The notes below the pieces were generated by a model. It was not told where the DNA came from, ran no database searches, and was given only the letters and a program-made list of their open reading frames with translations. Below, in pieces: positions 5,034 through 45,053 of a stretch of 45,119 nt of DNA (position 1 is its first letter; each line of letters opens with the position of its first letter). This DNA comes from Dhillonvirus LM40P1: the sequence record OZ035746.1; one strand, 5' to 3'. A program made the position numbers and the translations under genes.

Positions 5034-5795
5034 TTAGCGCGGAATACCGCAGATTTCGTTTAGTGTCTTCACGTCAAGCGCTACTGCCGTTGACTTCTTC
5101 TCTTCCTGCGGGATGAACTGTTTCACTTCAGGCCATGCCTTAATAAGTTTGGTGTCTGTAGTGTACTTATTCAGAGTACCCATAACTGACAATTTAAACT
5201 CATCGTATTTAGCACGTAAATCGCGGCGCGCCTTGTCGTTCTTATCCAGACGTTTGCAAAATTCATGCTCTGCCGGGTAATCTGCACGACCGCGAGGCTT
5301 GTAGATCGGCACTTGCTCACCTTCCGCGTTAATTTCCACCAGCGCCGTAAGTAGCGCAGTTTCAAACCCAGGTACGATTTCGCCAATGTCCGGGGCCATC
5401 GAGTTATTGTAGCGGTCTTCCCAGTAGCCTCGGTGACAGCGGCTGCTGTAGTTATCACCGCTCAATGACAGTGTGCGGATGTTACCACCCATGTTGACTT
5501 CGAACGTTGCATCGTACACAGCACCAATGCCGTGGGGCATGTCCTTGTTATGGCTGAAGGTTGCACGGCTGGCGTACACGCTTATGCTAAACATGCCGTT
5601 ATTTGTGTCTTGATAGCTGCGCATCATTTTCTGCAACCCAACGAAGCTGGTAACACCTTTCGGCATCTGATCCAGAGTGATATCCAGCGCCAGGTCGCGC
5701 GATTCGGTCATTAACTTTTTGGCCTGCTTCGTGATTTCGTGGCCTGCCAGGATGTTAGCCAGGATTTGCTTTTTAATGTCTTTAGTCAGTCTCAT
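5034..5795 (-). CDS. hypothetical protein (antisense gene inside the head module)
   Basis: ORF 5034..5858; start placed at ATG 5795 (MRLTKDIKK) with GAGGAAA RBS because the promoter at 5826-5854 overlaps the longer ORF; no recognisable domain. Confidence 0.6.
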   Translation of the reverse strand: MRLTKDIKKQILANILAGHEITKQAKKLMTESRDLALDITLDQMPKGVTSFVGLQKMMRSYQDTNNGMFSISVYASRATFSHNKDMPHGIGAVYDATFEVNMGGNIRTLSLSGDNYSSRCHRGYWEDRYNNSMAPDIGEIVPGFETALLTALVEINAEGEQVPIYKPRGRADYPAEHEFCKRLDKNDKARRDLRAKYDEFKLSVMGTLNKYTTDTKLIKAWPEVKQFIPQEEKKSTAVALDVKTLNEICGIPR

Positions 5796-5825
5796 TGTTG
5801 TTTCCTCGTTTGTTGGTGTGCAACC

Positions 5826-5854
5826 AATATATTGCAACCAATTAGCCAATGCAA
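5826..5854 (-). promoter_or_regulatory. sigma70-like promoter TTGCAT-N17-TATATT (recurring promoter family)
   Basis: Minus-strand reading: TTGCAT (5854..5849), 17-nt spacer containing ATTGGTTGCA, TATATT (5831..5826); about 30 nt upstream of the ATG at 5795. Confidence 0.5.
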
Positions 5855-5861
5855 GCAAATT

Positions 5862-5889
5862 TTGTGATTATTTTTATCACTGATAATAT
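5862..5889 (+). promoter_or_regulatory. candidate sigma70 promoter TTGTGA-N16-TAATAT for scaffold/capsid genes
   Basis: Hexamers at 5862-5867 and 5884-5889, divergent from the minus-strand promoter; upstream of the ATG at 5945. Confidence 0.35.
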
Positions 5890-5944
5890 TAAGGGCGTGA
5901 AGTCGAGCGGGTGGCCCGCTCTGCCACAATCCCTGGGGGATGTT

Positions 5945-7868: not shown

Positions 7869-7887
7869 TCGGTGCATACCCAAACGG

Positions 7888-7911
7888 GGCGGGCTTAAGC
7901 CCGCCTTTTTT
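7888..7911 (+). terminator. intrinsic terminator after capsid gene
   Basis: GGCGGGC-TTAA-GCCCGCC hairpin followed by TTTTTT. Confidence 0.7.
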
Positions 7912-10691: not shown

Positions 10692-10723
10692 TTTGGTCGG
10701 GTAAATGGCGAGTGTTAACATTG

Positions 10724-10743
10724 GGGGCGTAAGCCCCTTTTTT
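10724..10743 (+). terminator. intrinsic terminator after major tail gene
   Basis: GGGGC-GTAA-GCCCC hairpin followed by TTTTTT. Confidence 0.7.
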
Positions 10744-11121: not shown

Positions 11122-11435
11122 TTGAGGCGGCGCGACGCTTCTATGGTCCGCCGCCACCGTCCGAAGACCTTGCCGCTAGTTTATGGGGTGCGGCCCCCGA
11201 AGATATTTGTCCGCCAGTTGCATTATGGCCTGATAACGTACAGGTCGTTGCCGTTTTCACTGACTGCTCAACGCAGTGGCGCACCGGTTTTAACGGCGCA
11301 TACGGCATCGACTACGGCGTGCTGGAATGGCTATTTAAAATGCACGGCATCGAAAATGAGAAGCGCGCTTTTAAAGATATCAAGTTAATGGAGCGTATTG
11401 CACTCGACGAAATTGCAGCACAACAGGCCGGGTAA
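10759..11435 (+). CDS. tail assembly chaperone G-T fusion by -1 programmed frameshift
   Basis: Slippery heptamer A AAA AAC at 11112-11118; the -1 frame is open from 11118 to TAA 11433-11435 and encodes a plausible ~105-aa extension (KKLIEAARRFYGPPPPSEDLAASLWGAAPEDICPP...). This frame has no ATG, so the ORF track missed it. Confidence 0.5.
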
Positions 11436-11448
11436 TTCCGGCCTTTTT
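11426..11448 (+). terminator. intrinsic terminator after the G/GT gene
   Basis: GGCCGG-gTAATT-CCGGCC hairpin (the GT stop codon lies in the loop) followed by TTTTT. Confidence 0.6.
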
Positions 11449-11451
11449 CAT

Positions 11452-11771
11452 AGCGGGACAGCGGGACGTCCCGTTTTTATCCCGCTGTCCCTCCCAGCCA
11501 AAAACTGCATACCTATTCAGAAATACTGCATAAAACCAAAACGGGACAAAAACGGGACAAGCAGGACGTCCCGCCTCAAAAGTGCATATCTATGCAGTTT
11601 TCGTGCATAAAACGAACGGGACAAAAACGGGACAAATTGCAAGCGGGACAGAGCGGGACGTCCCGCCGTCCCTGCCAGAGCTGCCGCGGGTTTCAGCCGA
11701 TCGGGACAGGCGGGACAAAGCCCAGTCTTTCAGACTAGACGGGGGTCAATGGCCCCCTCCGTCTGAGACTG
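11452..11771. repeat. non-coding repeat module, copy A (about 1.5 units): CGGGACA(A) repeats, GGGACGTCCC palindromes, TGCATAAAAC boxes, long imperfect hairpin
   Basis: About 11 CGGGAC(A/G) copies, several in ACGGGACAAAAACGGGACAA doublets at 10-bp phase; GGGACGTCCCG at 11463, 11564, 11655; hairpin-forming CAGTCTTTCAGACTAGACGGGGG...GCCCCCTCCGTCTGAGACTG at 11722-11771. The 11603-11771 part is roughly 80% identical to 40066-40244. Confidence 0.7.
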
Positions 11772-11838
11772 AATAAGGTTGGTTGCAAAATGACTGATAC
11801 AATACAAACGGCAACTTGCATAAAAAGGGGACTGCATA

Positions 11839-14481: not shown

Positions 14482-14488
14482 TAAAATG

Positions 14489-14517
14489 GCCCTCACACAC
14501 AACGTGAGGGCTTTTTT
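14489..14517 (+). terminator. intrinsic terminator whose 3' arm contains the RBS of the next gene
   Basis: GCCCTCAC-ACACAAC-GTGAGGGC hairpin followed by TTTTTT and immediately ATG 14518; the GAGGG RBS lies in the 3' stem arm. Confidence 0.65.
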
Positions 14518-20702: not shown

Positions 20703-20725
20703 AGGGGCCGTTTGGCCCCTTTCTT
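20703..20725. terminator. bidirectional terminator between J and the convergent minus-strand gene
   Basis: AGGGGCC-GTTT-GGCCCCT hairpin with a T-rich flank on the plus strand and a T-run on the minus strand; the stop of the minus-strand gene at 20724 lies in the flank. Confidence 0.6.
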
Positions 20726-21689
20726 AATACATATTAGGAAGGACAATCAGCGGTGTGGGTACGACAACATTGCGGTTAGGCATCTGGAATTGCTGCCGTG
20801 AATAGTTGCCAATGACGCGGTTTTTCGCTGCACCAACGACGCTACCCGCCATGCGGATCCCGTTCATTCGTACGTGGTTATAACCGCTATTGTTTTCAAT
20901 AAGCGCGCCCGTGTATGAAAGCTGAATAAGGCTGTTACCGATATTCTGCCACCCTGCGCTAAGGTCAACCGTCCCGTTAAACACAAACGGCTTATTGACG
21001 GTGGAGAATGTAACCTGGCCTGCGTTGTTGGTCATCGTGATACCGGTTCCGGGGCTTGGCGGTGTGTTATTGAATATAACCAATTCCATGTCAACGGCAG
21101 CACCCACATCATCAATCCCGCCGTAAGCCGCATTGCGGACGATAATACTGCCTCCATCGAAGCCAACCGACACGTTAGGGTCATCCCAACGGGCGAACGG
21201 AACACCTCCGACCGGCAGCGGCATACTTCCGTTCACATGGACGCGCTGCGCGTAGCGACAGGTCATCAGCCGAGCGACGTTTGATATGGCGGTGAAGTCC
21301 GTCGAGTTAGCCACCAGAAGCCCAGCATTACGCGACCCCACCGGCAGCACTTCCATAATCGTTCCCGCCCAGGTTGGAAGCCCGCTATAAGCGCCCAGCG
21401 CGTCAGCACCGTGCAGCGTAATTCCGCCATCACCATTTCGAGATATTGACGTTACAAACATCGGATCGGGTATTACCAGTGTTTGGTCGAACACTTCCAC
21501 CACTTCAACGGGATTAGTTAGCACGACTATAAGCTGCGATCCAGGCGTTAGCGGAGTATTGACTGTTAGCGTCTTGTCAGATTGGCAGCGCTGATTAAAA
21601 TTGGTACAAAAAGACGGAGCACGAAGCCCCGCCGTAATTTCCATTCTTGGACGTCCATCGTTGTATTCGATAAGGATACCTGCACCCAT
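20724..21689 (-). CDS. hypothetical beta-rich protein (321 aa), co-transcribed with the lipoprotein
   Basis: ORF 20724..21698; ATG 21689 sits directly after the lipoprotein stop (TAAATG) with a GGGAG RBS; Gly/Asn/Thr/Val-rich; no signal peptide seen; no domain recognised. Confidence 0.5.
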   Translation of the reverse strand: MGAGILIEYNDGRPRMEITAGLRAPSFCTNFNQRCQSDKTLTVNTPLTPGSQLIVVLTNPVEVVEVFDQTLVIPDPMFVTSISRNGDGGITLHGADALGAYSGLPTWAGTIMEVLPVGSRNAGLLVANSTDFTAISNVARLMTCRYAQRVHVNGSMPLPVGGVPFARWDDPNVSVGFDGGSIIVRNAAYGGIDDVGAAVDMELVIFNNTPPSPGTGITMTNNAGQVTFSTVNKPFVFNGTVDLSAGWQNIGNSLIQLSYTGALIENNSGYNHVRMNGIRMAGSVVGAAKNRVIGNYSRQQFQMPNRNVVVPTPLIVLPNMY

Positions 21690-21691
21690 AA

Positions 21692-21916
21692 TTACCACTC
21701 CCGTGATTTAACTGATACCGTACCAGAGAAGTTACCGTCTGAATCTGCCGCCAAACCGGTGAATCGCATGTCAATGTCTCCGGCAGCGACCTTTTGCCCG
21801 TCAACATAACGCAACATGCAGCTTCCCGCAACGTAGGTAACGCAATCGCCATTATGACGCTCAACAGCACAACCAGACAGCATAGCAACGACTAAAATAC
21901 TTAATAAAGTTTTCAT
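21692..21916 (-). CDS. small lipoprotein (74 aa), candidate superinfection-exclusion protein (Cor/Llp-like)
   Basis: ORF 21692..21961; ATG 21916 with AAGGAGA RBS; signal peptide and lipobox MKTLLSILVVAMLSGC; own promoter; sits between the J and tail fiber genes on the opposite strand. Confidence 0.5.
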   Translation of the reverse strand: MKTLLSILVVAMLSGCAVERHNGDCVTYVAGSCMLRYVDGQKVAAGDIDMRFTGLAADSDGNFSGTVSVKSREW

Positions 21917-21945: not shown

Positions 21946-21974
21946 AATATAGTGCAACCAATACGTGATTGCAA
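21946..21974 (-). promoter_or_regulatory. sigma70-like promoter TTGCAA-N17-TATATT (recurring family)
   Basis: Minus-strand reading: TTGCAA (21974..21969), 17-nt spacer containing ATTGGTTGCA, TATATT (21951..21946); about 30 nt upstream of the lipoprotein ATG. Confidence 0.5.
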
Positions 21975-21997
21975 CCAATTTATGAGGAGTTTTCGCT

Positions 21998-25825: not shown

Positions 25826-26296
25826 TTATTTAAGTGCGCGAGTTACCAGTGTTTTTTCCATATTGCGGAAGTCTTCCTCGGTCATCTGGATTTTCGACCC
25901 GTCTTCACCGTACAGCGTCACCAGCGGTTGAGCTTTCGCTAAAACTCCCTTCGGCAGCGACCACGCATCAACCTGTTTCTTCAGGCTTTCCAACTGCGCT
26001 GCCGTTACGTCGATCTGGATCTCGTCATGCACAGTTGTGTAAGACTCACCCAGTAGCGCGGAATATGCCACTAAATCCACAATGTTATCTTCCTGGTGTT
26101 TACGGGTCTGGCGTACCAGCTTCAGGCAAATCATAAATACCCAGGCTTCTTGCTCGGTAAGGTCACGACCGGTTAGTGCGTTGAATACGGCAGCAATCTG
26201 TTTAGCGCTGCGTTCTTCTTTGCTGTCATATCCATTTTCTTTCCCGCGCTGTTCCATAGTGGTGGCGGCGTTTTTGCAGTATTCGAATGCTTTCAT
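25826..26296 (-). CDS. hypothetical protein (possibly all-alpha NTP-pyrophosphohydrolase-like)
   Basis: 156-aa ORF with AAGGAGA RBS and the promoter at 26342-26370 upstream; the functional guess rests on weak motif resemblance only. Confidence 0.45.
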   Translation of the reverse strand: MKAFEYCKNAATTMEQRGKENGYDSKEERSAKQIAAVFNALTGRDLTEQEAWVFMICLKLVRQTRKHQEDNIVDLVAYSALLGESYTTVHDEIQIDVTAAQLESLKKQVDAWSLPKGVLAKAQPLVTLYGEDGSKIQMTEEDFRNMEKTLVTRALK

Positions 26297-26341: not shown

Positions 26342-26370
26342 AATATAGTGCAACCAAATACGGATTGCAA
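26342..26370 (-). promoter_or_regulatory. sigma70-like promoter TTGCAA-N17-TATATT (recurring family)
   Basis: Minus-strand reading: TTGCAA (26370..26365), spacer containing TTGGTTGCA, TATATT (26347..26342); overlaps the 3' end of the upstream gene. Confidence 0.5.
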
Positions 26371-26374
26371 CCAA

Positions 26375-26596
26375 TTATTTTAATTCCTCAATCAAATTGG
26401 CACGGACAATACGGGCCGAGAAGGCATCGCACACAAGATGGCAACGCGCCGTCATGACAAGCCAGCCGGTTAGGTCACGGCCTAGCAATTGCTCCGGGCG
26501 GCTTACCCGCAATACTTTATTTCCAGGGAAAACCTGGTAACGTTTAATGATCTCATCCACGACGCGCGGACTGCGATCGACGACTAAGATATTCAT
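26375..26596 (-). CDS. hypothetical protein (73 aa)
   Basis: ATG 26596 with AAGGAGA RBS; overlaps the 3' end of the methyltransferase gene. Confidence 0.45.
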   Translation of the reverse strand: MNILVVDRSPRVVDEIIKRYQVFPGNKVLRVSRPEQLLGRDLTGWLVMTARCHLVCDAFSARIVRANLIEELK

Positions 26597-27755: not shown

Positions 27756-27772
27756 CGTTAAATCCTCATATT

Positions 27773-27803
27773 AAAAAAAAAGGGCGTTCCCTTCGGAACA
27801 CCC
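27773..27803 (-). terminator. intrinsic terminator (minus strand) between promoter and gene
   Basis: Minus-strand RNA GGGUGUUCC-GAAG-GGAACGCCC (9-bp stem including a G-U pair) followed by nine U (plus-strand A-run 27773-27781). Confidence 0.65.
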
Positions 27804-27805
27804 TC

Positions 27806-27834
27806 AATATAATGCAACCAATCTCGCAATGCAA
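27806..27834 (-). promoter_or_regulatory. sigma70-like promoter TTGCAT-N17-TATATT (recurring family)
   Basis: Minus-strand reading: TTGCAT (27834..27829), spacer containing ATTGGTTGCA, TATATT (27811..27806); predicted start falls inside the 5' arm of the terminator stem. Confidence 0.5.
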
Positions 27835-27839
27835 CCAAT

Positions 27840-30562: not shown

Positions 30563-30736
30563 TTATTCGCGTTCTTCACGATAGCGGCGCTGCCGTTCTC
30601 GTTCGGCCTTGTTCCGGCACGATTTACACTGCGCACGATACCCGTCGGGGCTACGTGCTGTTTTGCCAGTGTACTTATGAAATTGCGATAGCGGTTTAAC
30701 ACAGCCGCATTGGCTGCAACGTTTTTCTTCAATCAT
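30563..30736 (-). CDS. zinc-ribbon protein (57 aa)
   Basis: ORF 30563..30766 (GTG); ATG 30736 with GAGG RBS; CSQCGC...CKSC four-Cys motif and a basic tail. Confidence 0.45.
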   Translation of the reverse strand: MIEEKRCSQCGCVKPLSQFHKYTGKTARSPDGYRAQCKSCRNKAERERQRRYREERE

Positions 30737-30766: not shown

Positions 30767-30795
30767 ACTATAACTTTATGCGACCAATTCCGCAA
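30767..30795 (-). promoter_or_regulatory. weak promoter variant TTGCGG-N17-TATAGT with GGTTGC half-sites
   Basis: Minus-strand reading: ATTGGTTGCGGAATTGGTCGCATAAAGTTATAGT; overlaps the 3' end of the VRR-NUC gene. Confidence 0.3.
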
Positions 30796-31054
30796 CCAAT
30801 AAATCAGCGTCGTGAATGTTGTCGATTACGCGAACGTCGGCCCCGCGCTTCGCCATGCGCTCATGTTCACGTACCTGGTGCGGCTTCGGCTTACCACCGG
30901 GGCGCTTCACTTCAACGAATACGACTCTGCCGTTGATGATGATAATCAGGTCGGGAGCGCCGGTACGCCCTTCCCATGCCATTTTACGGCAGAATCCACC
31001 TGCCTCTTTTACCTCTTTCATCAGGTGACTTTGCACCTTGCCTTCAGGAGTCAT
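30776..31054 (-). CDS. VRR-NUC domain nuclease
   Basis: 92-aa ORF; PD-(D/E)xK core APDLIIIINGRVVFVEVKRPGGK; TAATG overlap with the polymerase gene. Confidence 0.65.
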   Translation of the reverse strand: MTPEGKVQSHLMKEVKEAGGFCRKMAWEGRTGAPDLIIIINGRVVFVEVKRPGGKPKPHQVREHERMAKRGADVRVIDNIHDADLLVAELVA

Positions 31055-33565: not shown

Positions 33566-34339
33566 TTAGCGGCGTCGACGTTTACGTGGTGCTTCGTCTT
33601 CGTCATCGTCGTCATCTTCATCGCGTGACTTGCGACGTTTACGCGGCTTATCGTCTTCATCGTCGTCATCTTCATCACGGCGGCGCTTAGACTTGCGCGG
33701 TTTTTCATCTTCATCATCGTCGTCACGACGTTTTGACTTTTTGGATTTACGCGGTGCTTCGTCTTCGTCATCATCCAGGTCGTCGTCAGAGCAATATGCA
33801 CCGCCGCCGCCACCGAAGGAATCCCCATCATCACGGAAGCGCATACCCAGCAGACCACAGCCTAAGCCTTTGCCGTTGGTATTGTTCCAGGCCCAAATAT
33901 CTAAGGAAACGTTGCAATAGCAACCGGAATAGATTTCCTTCCCTTCGATTTCGTCGCCGTCGATGGTCAGACCCTGCTCCGTCTGCTTCTCGCCTTCGGA
34001 AGTCTGGATGATCGGCTGTTTGAATGATTTAGCGTTGATATACAGCTTACCTTCAAACTCTTCCGTTACTTCTTCACGCTCATCACCATCTCGAACGGCA
34101 CATTCTTTCGAATCCTGCGCGTAGTGGCGGTCCATCCACTTATCGGCGTTCTTCTCAGACTTCAGTTTTTCGGTGAGCACTGCGCGTGCCGCCGCTTCCA
34201 CTTTGTCCACCTGCGGATCTTCTTTATCAAGAATAATCACCGCACGATATGCCGGTTTTTGTCCATCCTGTTTAGGGGTATCACGCTCCCAAATTTTCAG
34301 GAAGCATACACGTACATTTTTCAGGTTGACTTTAGCCAT
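33566..34339 (-). CDS. single-stranded DNA-binding protein (DUF2815/gp2.5-like) with repetitive acidic-basic C-terminal tail
   Basis: ORF 33566..34432; ATG 34339 (MAKVNLKNVRV) with GAGGAA RBS; C-terminus of tandem DDDDEDE-APRK-type units. Confidence 0.5.
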   Translation of the reverse strand: MAKVNLKNVRVCFLKIWERDTPKQDGQKPAYRAVIILDKEDPQVDKVEAAARAVLTEKLKSEKNADKWMDRHYAQDSKECAVRDGDEREEVTEEFEGKLYINAKSFKQPIIQTSEGEKQTEQGLTIDGDEIEGKEIYSGCYCNVSLDIWAWNNTNGKGLGCGLLGMRFRDDGDSFGGGGGAYCSDDDLDDDEDEAPRKSKKSKRRDDDDEDEKPRKSKRRRDEDDDDEDDKPRKRRKSRDEDDDDDEDEAPRKRRRR

Positions 34340-34435
34340 TTTCCAATTCCTCATTTCACATGTATCGGGGTTATTATAAGCCACCCCGTCCGGCTTGGTT
34401 GCTAATGTACTTGGTTGCGTTTCCGCGGTCAAGTG

Positions 34436-34669
34436 TTATTTATCAAAAAGTTTTAAAATCAGGTCGAGATATTTGTGCAGCCACACCAGTGGAGGGCGGT
34501 GCACGTTGTTTTCCATCCAGTTCAAACAGGCCTCGTTATAGCCGTCGTCCCATAAGCGGGATGGGTGGCGAATCATCCAGGCCAGCGCCAGCAGACCGCC
34601 GCAGGTATGTACTACGAATCCCAGCGCCGCAAGCGGCAGCACCATAATCATTGCCAGAATCTTATTCAT
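34436..34669 (-). CDS. small membrane protein (77 aa)
   Basis: ORF 34436..34795; ATG 34669 with GAGGA RBS; hydrophobic N-terminus ILAMIMVLPLAALGFVV. Confidence 0.4.
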   Translation of the reverse strand: MNKILAMIMVLPLAALGFVVHTCGGLLALAWMIRHPSRLWDDGYNEACLNWMENNVHRPPLVWLHKYLDLILKLFDK

Positions 34670-37083: not shown

Positions 37084-37130
37084 GGTGTGTCTCCGTTTAG
37101 TTAAAAGTGAATGTCGTTTCGACGAGGTGA

Positions 37131-37160
37131 ATAATAGATTGGTTGCAGGAGGGGTGTCAA
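37131..37160 (-). promoter_or_regulatory. strong sigma70-like early promoter (TTGACA-N18-TATTAT)
   Basis: Minus-strand reading: TTGACA (37160..37155), 18-nt spacer containing CTGCAACCAATC, TATTAT (37136..37131). Confidence 0.5.
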
Positions 37161-37170
37161 CAACTAATTT

Positions 37171-37204
37171 AAAAAAAAATCCCCGAAGCAAAACGCAACG
37201 GGGA
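37171..37204 (-). terminator. intrinsic terminator (minus strand) immediately upstream of the early promoter
   Basis: Minus-strand UCCCCG-UUGCGUUUUGCUU-CGGGGA hairpin followed by nine U (plus-strand A-run 37171-37179). Confidence 0.5.
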
Positions 37205-37274
37205 TAACCATAAGAGACAATGAGACTGGTTTTATTATTACACGCGCGCGCACCCGTTTCAATATACAAAACAG

Positions 37275-37303
37275 TTGACACCGGTTTGATTTGGGTGTAG
37301 TTT
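37275..37303 (+). promoter_or_regulatory. candidate sigma70 promoter TTGACA-N17-TAGTTT for the plus-strand early operon
   Basis: Consensus -35 at 37275-37280; -10-like TAGTTT at 37298-37303; about 30 nt upstream of the ATG at 37334. Confidence 0.4.
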
Positions 37304-37333
37304 CTCTGGTCATTAACCAACAGGAGACGGATT

Positions 37334-37663
37334 ATGAATATTAATGACGCAATCGAGATGTTAACTAATGCTGTGAGCGGTGAAACCAGCAGGTCCTGGG
37401 CTTACACAGATGCCGTTGGTGAGGTGCTATTTGAGATCGAACGCCTGCGCACAGTCGAGAAAGCGCTTACCGCCAAACTTGAATTGCTGAACGGTACGGC
37501 AGCGAGCAAGCTGCAAAAGCATAACGAAGAAATGGAAGAATACAAAAAGCAGGTTATCCAATTGCGCAATGAGGGTAAGTCCTGGGCAATGATTGCCGAG
37601 CTAACAGGCATTAATCAAAGCACTGTACGCTCCTGGGTACGCAATGCTAAAACCGCTAAGTAA
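37334..37663 (+). CDS. HTH DNA-binding protein (putative transcriptional regulator)
   Basis: 109-aa ORF with GGAGA RBS; C-terminal HTH-like SWAMIAELTGINQSTVRSWVRNAK. Confidence 0.45.
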   Translation: MNINDAIEMLTNAVSGETSRSWAYTDAVGEVLFEIERLRTVEKALTAKLELLNGTAASKLQKHNEEMEEYKKQVIQLRNEGKSWAMIAELTGINQSTVRSWVRNAKTAK

Positions 37664-37675
37664 GGACTTGAGACG

Positions 37676-39940
37676 ATGAGAAATATAGAATTTGCGATCA
37701 CACCTCCGGCAAAAAGGGGTGAATCAGCGGTAGCCCATAACCAATCCATGACTACCGCCGAGTTTTTCGAGTTTATGCTGGATGCGCCGGTAGTATCGTC
37801 AGTTTGCATTAACGGTACTGAAGATAAAAAAGAATATGCGCGACGTAAGCGTAAAGGCGACGGCATTGTGGCTACAACCGCCGATGGCACGCGTAAAAAG
37901 ACTGGCGTGGTTAGCCGCTCGATCCTGTTCTTCGACCTGGACCGTGCTGACAACCGCACACTTACCCGCTGCCGCAGGGCTTTCCGTAAGTCCGGCCTGG
38001 AATATGTCTACCACACCACCACCGGCGACCGCCACCCGTTGAAAGACGGCAAGCGCTGTGTGCGTTTCCTGGTGCTGACAAACAAGCCAGTTCCGGCGGA
38101 AGACTTGGGTCGCGCGCAGGCTGCACTGCTTGAGCAACTGGGTCTTACCGACGCGGGCTTTGATGACTGCTCGAAAGACACAAACCGCCTTATGTACCTG
38201 CCCCACCAGCAGGCTAAGGTCGAGTGTCATGAGGGTGAACGCGCTAACGTGCGTCGTCTGCTTCGCCTGGCTGACAAGATGGGTATTGAGCAGGAAACGT
38301 TTCGCCGTGAACTGGTGCAGGGCGACGACGAGCAGATGAACGGCATCCTCGACTGGTGTTTCCAGGCTGGTTTTGAGCCGTTACCATCCGGGCGCGGTTA
38401 TGAAGTACCGTGCCCAAACGAACATCTGCACTCTGGTGAAGGGTCTACCGCTATCATGCTTAAGGATGGCGAGATTCGTTTCAAATGTATGCACACCGGC
38501 AACGGATGCTGTTCTGAACTGAACAAACACCAACACCTGGCGCTGCGAATGATTGGTATCCCGGATATTTATAACGTGGAACCTCACAACATGTCGCGCA
38601 AACAGATCTCGGCAATCCTGCCCGGACTGGACGATGAAGAAGTGGACGCGCAGTATGAGCACATGGTCGATCTGGTTGGCGAAGGGGAGGATTATGCGTC
38701 CTGTACTGACGCAGACCTGGAAGACGAACCAACGGCACTGTTCTCTAAACACGACCCGATCATCGAAGGTCTGATTAACTTTAAATCGACCTGGTACGCA
38801 GCGGGTGAGTCGAACATTGGTAAGTCCTTCTTCGTCCTGGGTCAGATGGCTGCCGTTGCCGCTGGCATCCCGTTCGGCGGCGCGAAGGTCGTCCAGTCCC
38901 ATTGCTTCTACTTCGATGCGGAAGGTGGCGAGGCGTCCCACCAGCGTAAAGAAGCGTTGCAGATTAAATATGAGCACGACCTGGACAAGCTGCACATTAT
39001 CGACCTTCAGGCACGCGGCTGGGATATTACGAGCAAGTCCGGCCTGCGTGAAGTCATCAGCTTTATCAACCGCACCGCGGATGGGGAACCGGTCGGCCTG
39101 GTGGCGTTCGACTCCCTTAACCAGACCGTGGCCCTGCGCTCGGCAGATGCCAAACCGTTCGACGAGAACAACGCAAGCGATATGGGTGAGATTGTCAAAG
39201 CGCTGAAGTCCATTGCGGAAAACACAGGAGGCAGTGCGGGCGTCATTCACCACCCGGCGAAGGGTGCAAACGGCAGCCGATCCCCGCGTGGATCCGGTGC
39301 GCTACATGGCGCGGTGGATTCTGCATTCTTCCTGGAACAGCCAGACGAGAATCAGCCAGGCCAGCTTAACCTCTATCATGAGAAAGCCCGTAACGGCGTG
39401 AAACAGGGTCCGCGCGGCTTCGTGCTACTGAAGTGCAAAGTGTCCATTAACGAGCGCAAGTCCGACTCGTTCGAAGCACACCAGTCTACCAATCCGGGGC
39501 CAGACTTCGGCGATGTGGTTGCCGGTTGGGACGTAAAACCGATCCAGGCCACACCGCGCGACGAGACTCTGTACCTTGTTCCGGTAGCTCTGGCCCCGTT
39601 TGCTATCGAACAGGCTAAGGCGGCAGGCAAGCAGGCTGTTAAGGAAGAAAACCCCGCCGGTCCGCGCAATGAAAAAGAGAAAGTGCTTTACGCAGCGCTC
39701 GAAGCGTTGATGGAAGAGAATCCGGGACACCATGGCTTCAGCAAATCGGCAATCGTCCGCAAAGCCGGACTGGCGAAAGGTGGCACATCGACGAAGCCAA
39801 TAGACGATATGCGTGAGCGCGGAATCATCGGCTTTTACAAAGACCCTGACACCGGGGCCATTTACGGGTCGTCGAATCTGGTTATCAATTCACAAATACC
39901 TATGCAATTGACGGCGACGGATGATGATTTGAAAGATTAA
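37676..39940 (+). CDS. DNA primase-helicase (AEP-type primase-like N-terminus plus RecA/DnaB-like ATPase)
   Basis: 754-aa ORF; N-terminal FFDLDRAD motif; ATPase Walker A GESNIGKS and Walker B-like VAFDSL. Confidence 0.65.
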   Translation: MRNIEFAITPPAKRGESAVAHNQSMTTAEFFEFMLDAPVVSSVCINGTEDKKEYARRKRKGDGIVATTADGTRKKTGVVSRSILFFDLDRADNRTLTRCRRAFRKSGLEYVYHTTTGDRHPLKDGKRCVRFLVLTNKPVPAEDLGRAQAALLEQLGLTDAGFDDCSKDTNRLMYLPHQQAKVECHEGERANVRRLLRLADKMGIEQETFRRELVQGDDEQMNGILDWCFQAGFEPLPSGRGYEVPCPNEHLHSGEGSTAIMLKDGEIRFKCMHTGNGCCSELNKHQHLALRMIGIPDIYNVEPHNMSRKQISAILPGLDDEEVDAQYEHMVDLVGEGEDYASCTDADLEDEPTALFSKHDPIIEGLINFKSTWYAAGESNIGKSFFVLGQMAAVAAGIPFGGAKVVQSHCFYFDAEGGEASHQRKEALQIKYEHDLDKLHIIDLQARGWDITSKSGLREVISFINRTADGEPVGLVAFDSLNQTVALRSADAKPFDENNASDMGEIVKALKSIAENTGGSAGVIHHPAKGANGSRSPRGSGALHGAVDSAFFLEQPDENQPGQLNLYHEKARNGVKQGPRGFVLLKCKVSINERKSDSFEAHQSTNPGPDFGDVVAGWDVKPIQATPRDETLYLVPVALAPFAIEQAKAAGKQAVKEENPAGPRNEKEKVLYAALEALMEENPGHHGFSKSAIVRKAGLAKGGTSTKPIDDMRERGIIGFYKDPDTGAIYGSSNLVINSQIPMQLTATDDDLKD

Positions 39941-39945
39941 TTTTT

Positions 39946-40028
39946 GCGCGCATTGGTTGCCAATATGGTTAATTTGTGCGCGCATTGGTTGCCAGATTGG
40001 GCATTAAATCTATATCGCATTGGTTGCC
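39946..40028 (+). repeat. three direct iterons GCGCGCATTGGTTGCC(A)
   Basis: 39946-39962 and 39978-39994 are identical 17-mers; a shorter third copy TCGCATTGGTTGCC lies at 40015-40028; spacing about 32 and 35 bp. Confidence 0.65.
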
Positions 40029-40065
40029 GTGTAGTGCTAAATAAGTGAATAGTTATGCAAAATAA

Positions 40066-40244
40066 GTGCATAAAACAAACGGGACAAAAACGGGACAAAC
40101 GACAAACGGGACAAAACGGGACGTCCCGCCGTCCCCCTCAGGAGTGGCGCGGGTTTGAGGCAAACGGGACAAGCGGGACAGACCACAGTCTTTCAGACTA
40201 GACGGGGGGTATTGTCCCCCCTCCGTCTGAGACTGCATAAAATC
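40066..40244. repeat. non-coding repeat module, copy B
   Basis: GTGCATAAAACAAACGGGACAAAAACGGGACAA..., GGGACGTCCCGCC at 40119-40131, hairpin CAGTCTTTCAGACTAGACGGGGGG...CCCCCCTCCGTCTGAGACTG; same order and orientation as 11603-11771. Confidence 0.7.
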
Positions 40245-40394
40245 TCTGGTTGCATAATCAACGGCAGCATAGTGAAAAATGCGGCGGGGGTAGATCTCGG
40301 CAACCAATGCGAGTTGAAGAGTGGAGAGTGAAAAATGCAGTTTGCAATTGCAACTCATAGCGATCAGCATTTTCATGCGCGTGATTAATATTGG

Positions 40395-40423
40395 TTGCAT
40401 TCGTCCTGCCAGGGTGTTAGATT
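40395..40423 (+). promoter_or_regulatory. promoter of the recurring family, plus orientation (TTGCAT-N17-TAGATT)
   Basis: ATTGGTTGCAT at 40390-40400 and TAGATTGGTTGCA at 40418-40430; about 30 nt upstream of the ATG at 40452. Confidence 0.4.
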
Positions 40424-40451
40424 GGTTGCACACCAACATGAGGACTGAACG

Positions 40452-40766: not shown

Positions 40767-41036
40767 ATGACACGCAGACGCGCTCAATGGCTTTCATGGC
40801 ACATTCCCCTACATAGCATCCGTTTATGGGCGCAGAACGCGATTGAGGGCGATTCTGTGTTCTGGAGCTATCGGGATGACGTCAAGCCGCTGACGCAGAC
40901 CAGAAAGCTGCACCAGTTCATGAACGAACACGGACTGCCGGTGAAAACATCATTGCAACCAATCGGCATCCGTATTACATTACGCCGTAAGCCAATCGTT
41001 GAGCAGGTTGGAAAACACAGGAGACTGACAAAATGA
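40767..41036 (+). CDS. hypothetical protein (89 aa, basic)
   Basis: AAGGGG RBS. Confidence 0.45.
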   Translation: MTRRRAQWLSWHIPLHSIRLWAQNAIEGDSVFWSYRDDVKPLTQTRKLHQFMNEHGLPVKTSLQPIGIRITLRRKPIVEQVGKHRRLTK

Positions 41037-41629
41037 AATTGATCTTCCGCCATAAACATAATGGGCGATTCCTTACCCCAATCCAGGTGCTGCCGAACTA
41101 TGTGCGCCTGCACCACGAAGCCAGCGACCGCGTATTCTGGTTTAAGAAAGCCACTCTGCCGAAATATTTGCAGGTTGTGCATCATGACGTCCGCGTCGGC
41201 GATGTGCTGAGGGATATTCGGGACGGTGCGCTGTTCGTAGTCCAGCGTGTGACTACCTTCGGCGTTGTACTGCAATGCGGAGCGATCCGACGCCGTCTAT
41301 TTTCTGTCGGCCTGGTGAACTACACTCGCGTGGGCCGGAACTATGTGCCTAAGCAGTTCAAGCGCTACGACGCCAACCAGGTGCAAGCGAAGATGGGTCG
41401 CGCCGTACACAAAATCGTCAATCGCTTTGATGCCGTGACGAACGCACAGCGCCATGCGCAGGAATACGGTGTGGGATTCATCCGGGTAGAACGAGACGGC
41501 AGTATGACGTCCATCGACCCGCGCTCGACCCAACTGAAGATAGTCGAAGTGAGCAAATGTTGCCGGGCAGAAGTTGTGCGCGACCCCGGCGGGCAAGCCT
41601 TCTGTCGCGAGTGTGCGGGTGTGATATGA
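41033..41629 (+). CDS. hypothetical protein (198 aa) with C-terminal Cys cluster
   Basis: ATGA overlap with the upstream gene; C-terminal CCRAEVVRDPGGQAFCREC. Confidence 0.45.
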   Translation: MKLIFRHKHNGRFLTPIQVLPNYVRLHHEASDRVFWFKKATLPKYLQVVHHDVRVGDVLRDIRDGALFVVQRVTTFGVVLQCGAIRRRLFSVGLVNYTRVGRNYVPKQFKRYDANQVQAKMGRAVHKIVNRFDAVTNAQRHAQEYGVGFIRVERDGSMTSIDPRSTQLKIVEVSKCCRAEVVRDPGGQAFCRECAGVI

Positions 41630-42058: not shown

Positions 42059-42092
42059 CCCCAGTGAGGTTTAATCTTACTGGGGCTTTTTT
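42059..42092 (+). terminator. intrinsic terminator directly before the holin gene
   Basis: CCCCAGT...ACTGGGG stem followed by TTTTTT, then ATG 42093. Confidence 0.55.
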
Positions 42093-43550: not shown

Positions 43551-43557
43551 AGAGCAA

Positions 43558-43581
43558 GCCCGCAACTATGGCGGGCTTTTT
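43558..43581 (+). terminator. intrinsic terminator
   Basis: GCCCGC-AACTATG-GCGGGC hairpin followed by TTTTT. Confidence 0.7.
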
Positions 43582-43668
43582 ATTGCTTGACTTGCAACCA
43601 ATTAATAGCTCATACTTCTGTCGCCGTGGTATATTGATCGCGGTCAAACTGAATCAGGAAAATATACG

Positions 43669-45020: not shown

Positions 45021-45030
45021 TCTCACCACA

Positions 45031-45053
45031 GGCCCGCTTACGCGGGCTTTTTT
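45031..45053 (+). terminator. intrinsic terminator
   Basis: GCCCGC-TTAC-GCGGGC hairpin followed by TTTTTT. Confidence 0.7.

Follow-up and report, generated by a model that had tools for sequence, protein, structure and literature searches.

A conserved ten-base box on predicted promoters of Dhillonvirus genomes and an early phage protein that may bind it

Several systems are known in which one short DNA element recurs at many regulatory sites. In phage lambda, a small helix-turn-helix (HTH) protein, Cro, is encoded first in the rightward early operon and precedes the replication genes, and Cro and CI share multiple operators, 17-bp dyads bound by dimers, which lie over the -35, spacer, and -10 of the divergent early promoters and are confined to two control regions. 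In phage T4, MotA and AsiA serve a genome-wide class of promoters that keep the sigma-70 -10, while a MotA box of the TGCTT type, centred near -30, replaces the -35. The late promoters of phage P1 have in common a conserved element that adjoins the upstream side of the -10 and has its centre near -20; it is a 9-bp inverted repeat standing in for the missing -35, and the phage-encoded factor Lpa reads it together with the host polymerase. DnaA boxes are asymmetric, about 9-10 bp long, and are found in either orientation both at the origin and at promoters. The subject of this study is an element that shares something with each of these systems: a ten-base box, A-TTGGTTGC-(A/C/G), which recurs at predicted promoters along the 45,119 nucleotides of Dhillonvirus LM40P1 (OZ035746.1), the whole stretch being called the window below. 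The evidence for this box as a genuine cis-regulatory element of a well-sampled phage genus is strong, and it appears not to have been described. The literature searched (for the box sequence and for Dhillonvirus, HK578, and SSL-2009a promoters) yielded no description of the box, no analysis of Dhillonvirus promoters, no Dhillonvirus transcript data, and nothing on the control of transcription in these phages.

In an unbiased k-mer screen the core TTGGTTGC was the most enriched 8-mer of the window, with 23 copies where an order-3 Markov model predicts 1.9, and a position matrix of all copies gave a compact asymmetric 10-mer with no information in its flanks. On a map drawn by hand, intergenic DNA makes up 5.4% of the genome and contains 19 of the 23 cores (odds ratio 85, Fisher p = 5e-21); in simulations of that DNA there were 0.2 cores on average and 3 at most. 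The form ATTGGTTGCA, with up to one mismatch, occurs 21 times against an expectation of 3.66 +/- 1.88 and a shuffle maximum of 9. The box is therefore not equally frequent in coding DNA, and about 15 of the roughly 23 copies sit on promoters, spread genome-wide. The first-pass annotation of this DNA had described four minus-strand sites (5826-5854, 21946-21974, 26342-26370, and 27806-27834) as a single 29-bp architecture and as a stereotyped family of sigma-70-like promoters. All four fit TTGCAW-N6-WTTGGTTGCA-N-TATATT with no mismatch, while 100 dinucleotide-preserving shuffles gave no match even with two mismatches allowed, and the sites, far above chance, precede genes of matching orientation. 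The variants that it listed are likewise present in the window (30767-30795, 40395-40423, 37138-37147, 11778-11787, 43593-43602, and 39952-40028), and two further copies were found, at 40299-40308 (minus strand) and at 40954-40963 (minus strand, intragenic). Two of its descriptions need amendment. The pair placed at 34398-34425 does consist of two copies (34395-34418), but these are direct repeats on the plus strand rather than mutually inverted, and are inverted only relative to the minus-strand promoter that they flank. The three iterons reported at 39946-40028 are copies of the box, but the iteron-like tandem array there is a different repeat, CGGGACA.

Megablast of positions 20000-44000 gave matches at ~98% identity to Dhillonvirus LM40P1 and Escherichia phage Ioannina, and at ~80% to numerous further genomes of the genus, and on these matches the window is a Dhillonvirus genome of the HK578/SO-1 kind. 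Judging from annotated relatives, the rightward genes encode packaging, head, tail, and lysis functions along with some small genes, and the leftward block, from 37083 down to 25206, covers replication and nucleotide metabolism; two small antisense cassettes lie at 5034-5795 and 20724-21916, and the divergent control region at 37084-37333. No RNA polymerase gene is listed in the records of the annotated relatives, and the host enzyme would thus be expected to carry out transcription. Nine relatives were compared: Ioannina (L001), StarDew, Bas84, Kenya-K19, SO-1, CHD5UKE2, and three metagenomic genomes (L009, L011, and L031), which were retrieved through an HTH protein discussed below, not through the box, and have ~71% nucleotide identity over the alignable part. 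Copies of the box stand at equivalent places in all nine, down to this lowest identity, so the orthologous sites have been kept while the DNA between boxes drifts. Within aligned intergenic regions, no variation is seen in 83% of box columns, compared with 61.5% of the other columns (p = 7e-10). The core ranks first or second among 8-mers in Ioannina, StarDew, Bas84, Kenya-K19, SO-1, and CHD5UKE2, first in L002-L004, L007, L008, L009, and L011, and second in L031. Two Guernseyvirinae genomes (L005 and L006, sampled from Salmonella and E. coli hosts) served as an out-group; their polymerase and helicase module has ~65% protein identity to that of the window, their genomes hold 0 and 3 cores with no enrichment, and no comparable repeated intergenic motif turned up in either. 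The paired-box pattern was found in only 18 contigs of IMG/VR, 17 of them of 36-45 kb and the other a 14.5-kb fragment, and a search of 185,579 bacterial and archaeal genomes gave 97 scattered matches, none in Enterobacteriaceae.

The predicted promoters, here called A to G, P_L, and P_R (Table 1), agree with the sigma-70 consensus at 9-11 of 12 positions and have both hexamers at canonical spacing, with spacers of 17-18 bp, upstream of a same-strand gene with a leader. The -10 lies 28-30 nt from the ATG at A, B, E, and F and 45-50 nt from it at C, D, G, and P_L, and the ribosome-binding sites are of the GAGG/GGAG type. In the main class (B, C, D, E, and F) the box occupies -40 to -31, its TTGCA(N) forming the -35 with the -10 17 bp downstream; a fixed-offset scan of four independent genomes recovered TAnnnT at this distance, the A at -11 being the sole informative distant position. 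A second box is placed at -23 to -14, one base before the -10 (A, B, C, and D), at -28 to -19 (E), or at -9 to +1 (A and F). Inverted boxes accompany promoters with a consensus-type -35, namely P_L (-23 to -14) and G (two, flanking the -10), and the inverted registers overall are -23 to -14, -32 to -23, about -6 to +4, and +3. On predicted promoters the box thus takes at least five registers in both orientations, all within about -40 to +11, and most sites carry pairs with spacings of 9 to 35 bp; box clusters without a usable -10 also exist. Since a core promoter element would be expected to have one register and one orientation, this variety points to an operator. All ten bases are under selection, among them the ATTGG ignored by sigma-70, and this argues for a separate sequence-specific protein overlapping the polymerase footprint. 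The earlier remark that the duplicated half-site is more than sigma-70 needs is consistent with the several registers, both orientations, and clusters lacking a partner -10.

Two other explanations in terms of polymerase recognition were tried and rejected. A sigma-54 promoter (TGGCAC-N5-TTGCA) gave 14 matches at two or fewer mismatches where 16.7 were expected, and its spacing is wrong, as the GG and GC of the box are 4 nt apart, not 10. The inverted box (TGCAAC) was considered as a -35 of the extracytoplasmic function (ECF) type, and no fixed distance on that side showed a conserved element. Structured RNA was also looked for, and no Rfam or tRNA match was obtained anywhere in the window.

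Table 1. Positions of the predicted promoters, the box copies, and associated features in the window
Feature	Position	Strand	Sequence elements	Target or context
Promoter A	5826..5854	-	-35 TTGCAT (5854-5849); 17-bp spacer ending in box ATTGGTTGCA (5833-5842); -10 TATATT (5831-5826)	Antisense Nmad5 cassette 5034-5795 (Pfam Nmad5 for the downstream gene)
Box over -10/start of promoter A	5819..5828	-	-9 to +1; part of imperfect palindrome TTGGT-TGCAC-ACCAA	Palindrome shared with site F
GTTGGTTGCA copy	11778..11787	+		End of non-coding repeat region A, just past a conserved large hairpin
Promoter B	21946..21979	-	Box 21970-21979 gives -35 TTGCAA; box 21953-21962 at -23 to -14; -10 TATATT	Lipoprotein and DUF6453 antisense cassette
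Promoter C	26342..26375	-	Boxes 26366-26375 (-35) and 26349-26358 (TTTGGTTGCA, spacer); -10 TATATT	Upstream of gene 25826-26296
Intrinsic-terminator-like hairpin	27771..27805	-	Hairpin and T9 run (terminator scan)	Starts 1 nt past -10 of promoter D
Promoter D	27806..27839	-	Boxes 27830-27839 (-35 TTGCAT) and 27813-27822 (spacer); -10 TATATT	
Promoter E	30767..30800	-	TTGCGG-17-TATAGT; boxes ATTGGTTGCG (30791-30800) and ATTGGTCGCA (30779-30788), 12 bp apart	Lar-like gene 30563-30736, then SNF2 helicase / C5-methyltransferase / HNH operon
Promoter G	34394..34432	-	TTGACC-17-TACATT; two inverted boxes flank -10 (cores 34411-34418 and 34395-34402)	Gp2.5-like single-stranded DNA-binding protein (SSB) and DNA polymerase genes
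Leftward early promoter P_L	37131..37160	-	TTGACA-18-TATTAT, 11/12; inverted box 37138-37147 at -23 to -14	
Rightward early promoter P_R	37275..37321	+	TTGACA-17-TAGTTT, then imperfect palindrome (T)TGGT-CATTA-ACCAA	
Candidate box-binding HTH protein	37334..37663	+	109 aa	First gene of rightward early operon, with helicase-primase 37676-39940
Three direct boxes	39952..40028	+	(cg)cATTGGTTGCC, 32 and 35 bp apart	Region B, directly past helicase-primase stop codon
Inverted ATTGGTTGCC copy	40299..40308	-		Region B; kept in all relatives
Promoter F	40390..40430	+	Box 40390-40399 gives -35 TTGCAT; 17-bp spacer; -10 TAGATT; box 40421-40430 at -9 to +1	Rightward operon starting 40452
Box	40954..40963	-		Inside gene 40767-41036; conserved in relatives
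Box	43593..43602	-	Inverted within weak plus-strand match TTGACT-18-CATACT	Just past terminator 43556-43578

The sites differ in how they have been kept among relatives. Promoter A and its leader are conserved while the gene downstream differs (Nmad5 in the window, a RusA-like gene in SO-1, and an extra gene in CHD5UKE2), so the module acts as a portable promoter at a site of accessory-gene exchange. At B, relatives retain the -35 box alone, and at C several have the upstream box inverted (TTGCAACCAAT-agg-TTGGTTGCA). At D, both box cores are unchanged in six aligned relatives, a single change, in L008, affecting the final base of a box, whereas the intervening 7 nt take five different forms. 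The arrangement of E recurs in L009, L011, and L031, and the -10 of F is TATATT in most relatives. P_L is the best sigma-70 match in the regions scanned; in distant relatives its spacer is filled by two inverted boxes, and in L009 and L011 P_R has a full inverted box at +3. The box at 43593-43602 is present as two copies in some relatives, and no convincing partner -10 was found for the 11778-11787 copy in the promoter scan. Conservation of the intragenic copy at 40954-40963 may merely reflect coding constraint.

Promoter D is nested in a hairpin, GAGGGTGTTCC-GAAG-GGAACGCCCTT (27771-27811 region, minus strand), whose stem is maintained by differing sequences in StarDew, Kenya-K19, L009, and L031. 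Because only 1 nt separates the hairpin from the -10, transcription is predicted to start within the 5' arm, and the site looks like a stop-and-restart junction between transcription units, at which transcripts from upstream would stop and those from D, without the full stem, would escape. Antitermination of the Q type was set aside at this site, as the predicted start is inside the hairpin and no Pfam Q-family match was found among the scanned proteins.

Some observations concern the surroundings of these promoters. The start of the scaffold gene that close relatives place at 5849 (5849-5944, plus strand) overlaps promoter A and is likely wrong, as Bas84 and Kenya-K19 start ~100 bp later, and a conserved plus-strand promoter match, TTGCGA-16-TAATAT, was read from the alignment between the two scaffold-gene starts. 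Between P_R and P_L, at 37165-37262 on the minus strand, there is a conserved promoter match TTGAAA-17-AATAAT with an upstream TG (37262-37234), followed ~30 nt later by a CCCCG...CGGGG hairpin (37203-37181) and a T9 run (37179-37171) with no Rfam match; this element could be a short non-coding transcript of ~60 nt or an insulator before P_L. The SSB gene behind promoter G (33566-34354) reads into a plausible charged tail, DDDDEDE..PRKRRRR, while the translation of its counterpart in Ioannina (33643-34497) is dissimilar past residue ~183 and has no such tail, which suggests a frameshift or indel error in that record.

The copies that lie past the helicase-primase gene belong to region B, a conserved stretch of ~500 bp that is inconsistently annotated among relatives; three direct ATTGGTTGCC boxes and an inverted one lie within it. 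The SO-1 record labels this stretch and region A as repeat regions, and flags only these two. Both are paralogous non-coding regions, A preceding the tape-measure gene and B following the helicase-primase gene, and both host an unrelated repeat family, CGGGACA(A), at 11440-11730 and 40080-40190, with ~6-12 copies per region, partly in tandem at intervals of 10-12 bp and with CGGGAC-GTCCCG palindromes. The 8-mers GTCCCGTT, TGTCCCGC, and related ones are enriched in all Dhillonvirus genomes. The CGGGACA repeats appear to be better candidates for origin iterons than the ATTGGTTGCC boxes are, and we take their two-site layout to recall the ori/crr of P4. Each region also has a large hairpin, CAGTCTTTCAGACTAGACGGGGG-loop-CCCCCTCCGTCTGAGACTG (11727-11777 and 40190-40237), with a (T)TGGTTGCA-like sequence ~10-15 nt downstream of each copy; the stem is kept and the loop is variable in relatives, and in the absence of a T run the hairpin is not a standard terminator. 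A 128-amino acid minus-strand open reading frame called at 40053-40439 in close relatives is likely wrong, as the DNA is part of conserved non-coding region B, where other records place an annotation on the opposite strand or none.

The explanation favoured here, held with about even confidence, is that A-TTGGTTGC-A is the box of a phage-encoded binding protein, likeliest the HTH product of 37334-37663, and that its likeliest mode of action is Cro-like repression. From what has been computed, namely the box with its enrichment, conservation, and positions and the distribution of the HTH protein, we infer that the promoters fire, that a protein binds the boxes, that the HTH protein is this binder, and that binding represses. 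The boxes, mostly in pairs, would overlie the polymerase-binding surface, from -40 to +4, of almost every sigma-70-type promoter in the genome, and in the main class the TTGCA of the box would double as the -35 hexamer. Given their good sigma-70 consensus and optimal spacing, the predicted promoters look self-sufficient, and early in infection the host sigma-70 polymerase would fire them unaided. The HTH protein would be made first from P_R, together with the helicase-primase; as it accumulated it would fill the boxes over the -35, spacer, and -10/+1, and this occupancy would turn down early and accessory transcription units, and that of the HTH protein itself, together. Through the box cluster adjoining the helicase-primase gene, this regulation may be coupled to the replication-origin region. 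Predicted early functions behind the promoters include the Lar-like protein, methyltransferases, and a lipoprotein (Cor-type superinfection exclusion in the record of one relative).

Several properties of the HTH protein make it the likeliest reader. Pfam scans covered 20 early, small, or unassigned proteins, and this product alone has a clear DNA-binding domain. Sigma70_r4_2 matches residues 65-107 with 29.4 bits (cut-off 25.7), but HTH_23 and HTH_28 score nearly as well, so that the region-4 call is unspecific; the recognition helix presumably resembles the region 4.2 motif of ECF sigma factors. With no Pfam match to sigma region 2 and only 109 amino acids, the protein is not a sigma factor. 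An AlphaFold2 model (predicted local distance difference test score 89) has a 58-residue helix (22-79) followed by a C-terminal HTH (84-107), and the protein's profile weakly matches a coiled-coil segment of vimentin. The long helix in this model suggests a dimer able to bridge paired boxes of variable spacing, and such pairs would suit a flexible dimer. Homologues occur in 154 phage records, all Dhillonvirus-like, and fall in 27 protein clusters of a large database; none was returned from Guernseyvirinae, although the replication module is common to both groups. The C-terminal 60 residues are near-invariant over alignable homologues, even where the N-terminus has been swapped. Apart from enzymes and lysis and packaging products, every box-bearing relative sampled has in common only this protein, an acidic protein, a small membrane-like protein, and the Lar-like protein, while the rightward operon's remaining small basic products are not common to all. 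The control region of the HTH gene itself carries boxes (in the P_L spacer, and at P_R +3 in distant relatives), which would be as expected for an autoregulator. In HK578, gp45-gp46, the orthologues of the HTH and helicase-primase genes, have been treated as one replication-initiation operon, and mutations escaping OLD defence map to it, including a promoter-region deletion, which the authors relate to replication initiation (bioRxiv 10.64898/2026.07.10.737580).

Other results weigh against this assignment. Foldseek comparison of the HTH model with the PDB gave generic HTH matches only (an insertion sequence transposase N-terminus, GerE/LuxR, and resolvase, E > 0.5), a profile search of PDB sequences returned nothing useful, and neither Pfam nor Foldseek found a relationship in sequence or fold to Cro or CI. 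The zinc-ribbon-like Lar-like protein, with its CxxC pairs, is also in every box-bearing phage and is an alternative candidate binder. Diverged HTH variants keep the exact box: those of L008 and L031 are 35% and 46% identical overall, with a recognition helix of STIRQW or STIKNW instead of STVRSW, so there is no covariation signal linking protein and box, and an invariant reader, whether from host or phage, explains the unchanged box equally well. Repression is called into question by the bias toward the direct orientation and by the use of the box as the -35 in its commonest register, as both also fit a positive, promoter-specifying role. Finally, one box on early, accessory, and rightward (F) promoters alike has no obvious temporal logic for a simple repressor.

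A positive role would make the box an extended -35 that a phage factor reads on the host polymerase, for example the region-4-like HTH protein as a class-II activator or surrogate region 4, with a function akin to MotA/AsiA appropriation in T4 or to Lpa in P1; direct boxes would then mark a promoter class switched on after infection, while inverted boxes at P_L, G, and P_R would switch those promoters off. This is unlikely but not far-fetched. The commonest register sets TTGCA exactly as the -35, with the -10 17 bp downstream, and all promoters of this class have TTGCA, not TTGAC; TTGAC-type -35 hexamers pair with inverted boxes and TTGCA-type ones with direct boxes, promoter F heads the rightward operon that leads to lysis and structural genes, and the HTH protein does exceed the Sigma70_r4_2 cut-off. 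However, promoters at 9/12 of the sigma-70 consensus with optimal spacing should not need an activator, a protein bound at -23 to -14 or -9 to +1 would normally hinder polymerase, and genes expected to act immediately, such as those for the Lar-like protein and methyltransferases, rely on box promoters. Nor did the Pfam scans of the 20 proteins find MotA, AsiA, or another sigma family, and the HTH protein is too short for a sigma factor and has no region 2 match. A more specific version, in which a free-standing surrogate resembling sigma region 4 reads the -35 on the host polymerase, appropriating it without proteins of the MotA/AsiA type, and also seeds the replication origin, so that one box would couple transcription with replication in a virulent siphophage lacking its own polymerase, is decidedly doubtful. 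It is more improbable that no extra factor exists and that a sigma-70 promoter family was spread by cassette duplication, with the box kept as a good -35 and spacer. Duplication of cassettes has occurred, as an extended paralogous stretch (TATATTGGTTGCACACCAACA..GAGGA..ATG) is common to A and F; the box copies at 39952-40028 belong to units that also duplicate the 3' end of the helicase-primase gene, and the four core sites all score as sigma-70 promoters. Old duplicates should nevertheless drift evenly, whereas here the 10-mer stays fixed amid varying neighbouring bases; neither the ATTGG part nor a spacer 10-mer is read by sigma-70, and duplication gives no role to inverted copies, copies overlapping the -10 and start, or clusters without a -10.

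That the reader is a conserved Enterobacterales protein, a transcription factor or nucleoid protein borrowed by the phage, is very improbable, although the box is invariant both where the candidate HTH varies down to 35-46% identity and over phages recorded from Escherichia, Shigella, Salmonella, and Sodalis hosts. The ATTGGT half may resemble the half-sites of GntR/FadR-type operators (e.g. PdhR), and GTTGCATT may resemble the CytR octamer; the operators of such host proteins are palindromes with a spacing unlike that of the box. A host factor is made less likely by the sister subfamily Guernseyvirinae, which was sampled from Salmonella and E. coli hosts and is not enriched for the box, and by the absence of the paired-box pattern from Enterobacteriaceae, while a regulon of ~20 sites would alone be enough to keep a phage protein from changing its specificity. 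The least probable of the explanations weighed is that the box is primarily replicative, an initiator site for loading the helicase-primase much like a DnaA box, with the promoter copies secondary and coupling transcription to replication. Three or four boxes do lie directly past the helicase-primase gene, in a conserved non-coding region with iterons and hairpins; the HTH gene shares an operon with the helicase-primase, to which, with its promoter, the HK578 OLD-escape mutations map; and an asymmetric box of ~9-10 bp, in both orientations, stands at an origin-like region and at promoters. Against this, the promoter copies that make up most of the total lie genome-wide outside the origin-like region, the tandem, helically phased repeats of regions A and B are CGGGACA and not the box, and region A holds only one degenerate box.

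Two further observations concern the window more broadly. The 8-mers GCTGCCGT, GTTGCCGT, TGCCGTTG, and CGGCAGCG each occur 25-30 times where ~4-6 copies are expected, with no clear bias in strand or direction of transcription, and are enriched in the Guernseyvirinae genomes too; the excess probably reflects codon or amino-acid usage that the order-3 background misses. The rightward late block has seven strong plus-strand terminator-like hairpins with T runs (7886-7907, 10723-10738, 11425-11444, 14488-14512, 42059-42085, 43556-43578, and 45030-45049), several of which directly precede the next start codon and leave no room for a promoter, so that late expression may rely on partial read-through or an antiterminator. 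Candidate antiterminators are the small basic proteins of the promoter F operon encoded at 40767-41036 (isoelectric point 11.6) and 41033-41629 (C-terminal cysteine pairs).

Dhillonviruses, among them HK578, SO-1, and several BASEL phages, are routine test phages in studies of anti-phage defence and in phage engineering. A single box on essentially every transcription unit, together with a candidate reader, gives a testable regulatory map, which predicts the promoters, the boundaries of units (including the terminator-nested promoter), an autoregulated HTH/helicase-primase operon, and the likely origin region. In practice, the sites offer compact, portable modules of promoter and leader and a handle on the timing of payload expression; the same promoter module already drives differing accessory genes among relatives. 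The system is of an ordinary kind, a phage regulon with a shared operator, and its value lies in being the first description for the clade rather than a new principle.

The comparison with the systems described at the outset places the box near each of them and within none. The likeness to lambda Cro/CI is in the layout, as a small HTH protein is encoded first in the rightward early operon ahead of replication genes, and repeated sites overlap the polymerase footprint at the -35, spacer, and -10 of divergent early promoters in the manner of an autoregulator. Unlike the lambda dyads, the Dhillonvirus box is an asymmetric 10-mer, used in both orientations at about ten promoters across a virulent genome and in a cluster on the helicase-primase side; an imperfect dyad, TTGGT-N5-ACCAA just past the -10, is found only at A, F, and P_R. 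With the MotA/AsiA promoters of T4 it has in common that a motif specific to the phage occupies the -35 region at many promoters whose -10 is still of the sigma-70 kind, but box sequence and register differ from those of middle promoters, neither MotA nor AsiA was found by Pfam among the 20 proteins, and the box keeps a -35-like TTGCA at 17-bp spacing and is also found in the spacer, over the -10, and inverted. The copies just upstream of the -10 recall the shared element of the P1 late promoters, while the box is asymmetric, a -35-like hexamer is present, and other copies lie at the -35 and at -10/+1. DnaA boxes are alike in length, asymmetry, and use of either orientation, in clustering in an origin-like region by replication genes, and in their presence at promoters that include that of the regulator's own operon; their sequence is unrelated (TTATCCACA vs TTGGTTGCA, 4/9), the candidate binder here is a 109-amino acid HTH protein and not an AAA+ initiator, and most copies of the box are on promoters. 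The Dhillonvirus box is a member of none of the lambda, T4 MotA, P1 Lpa, and DnaA families.

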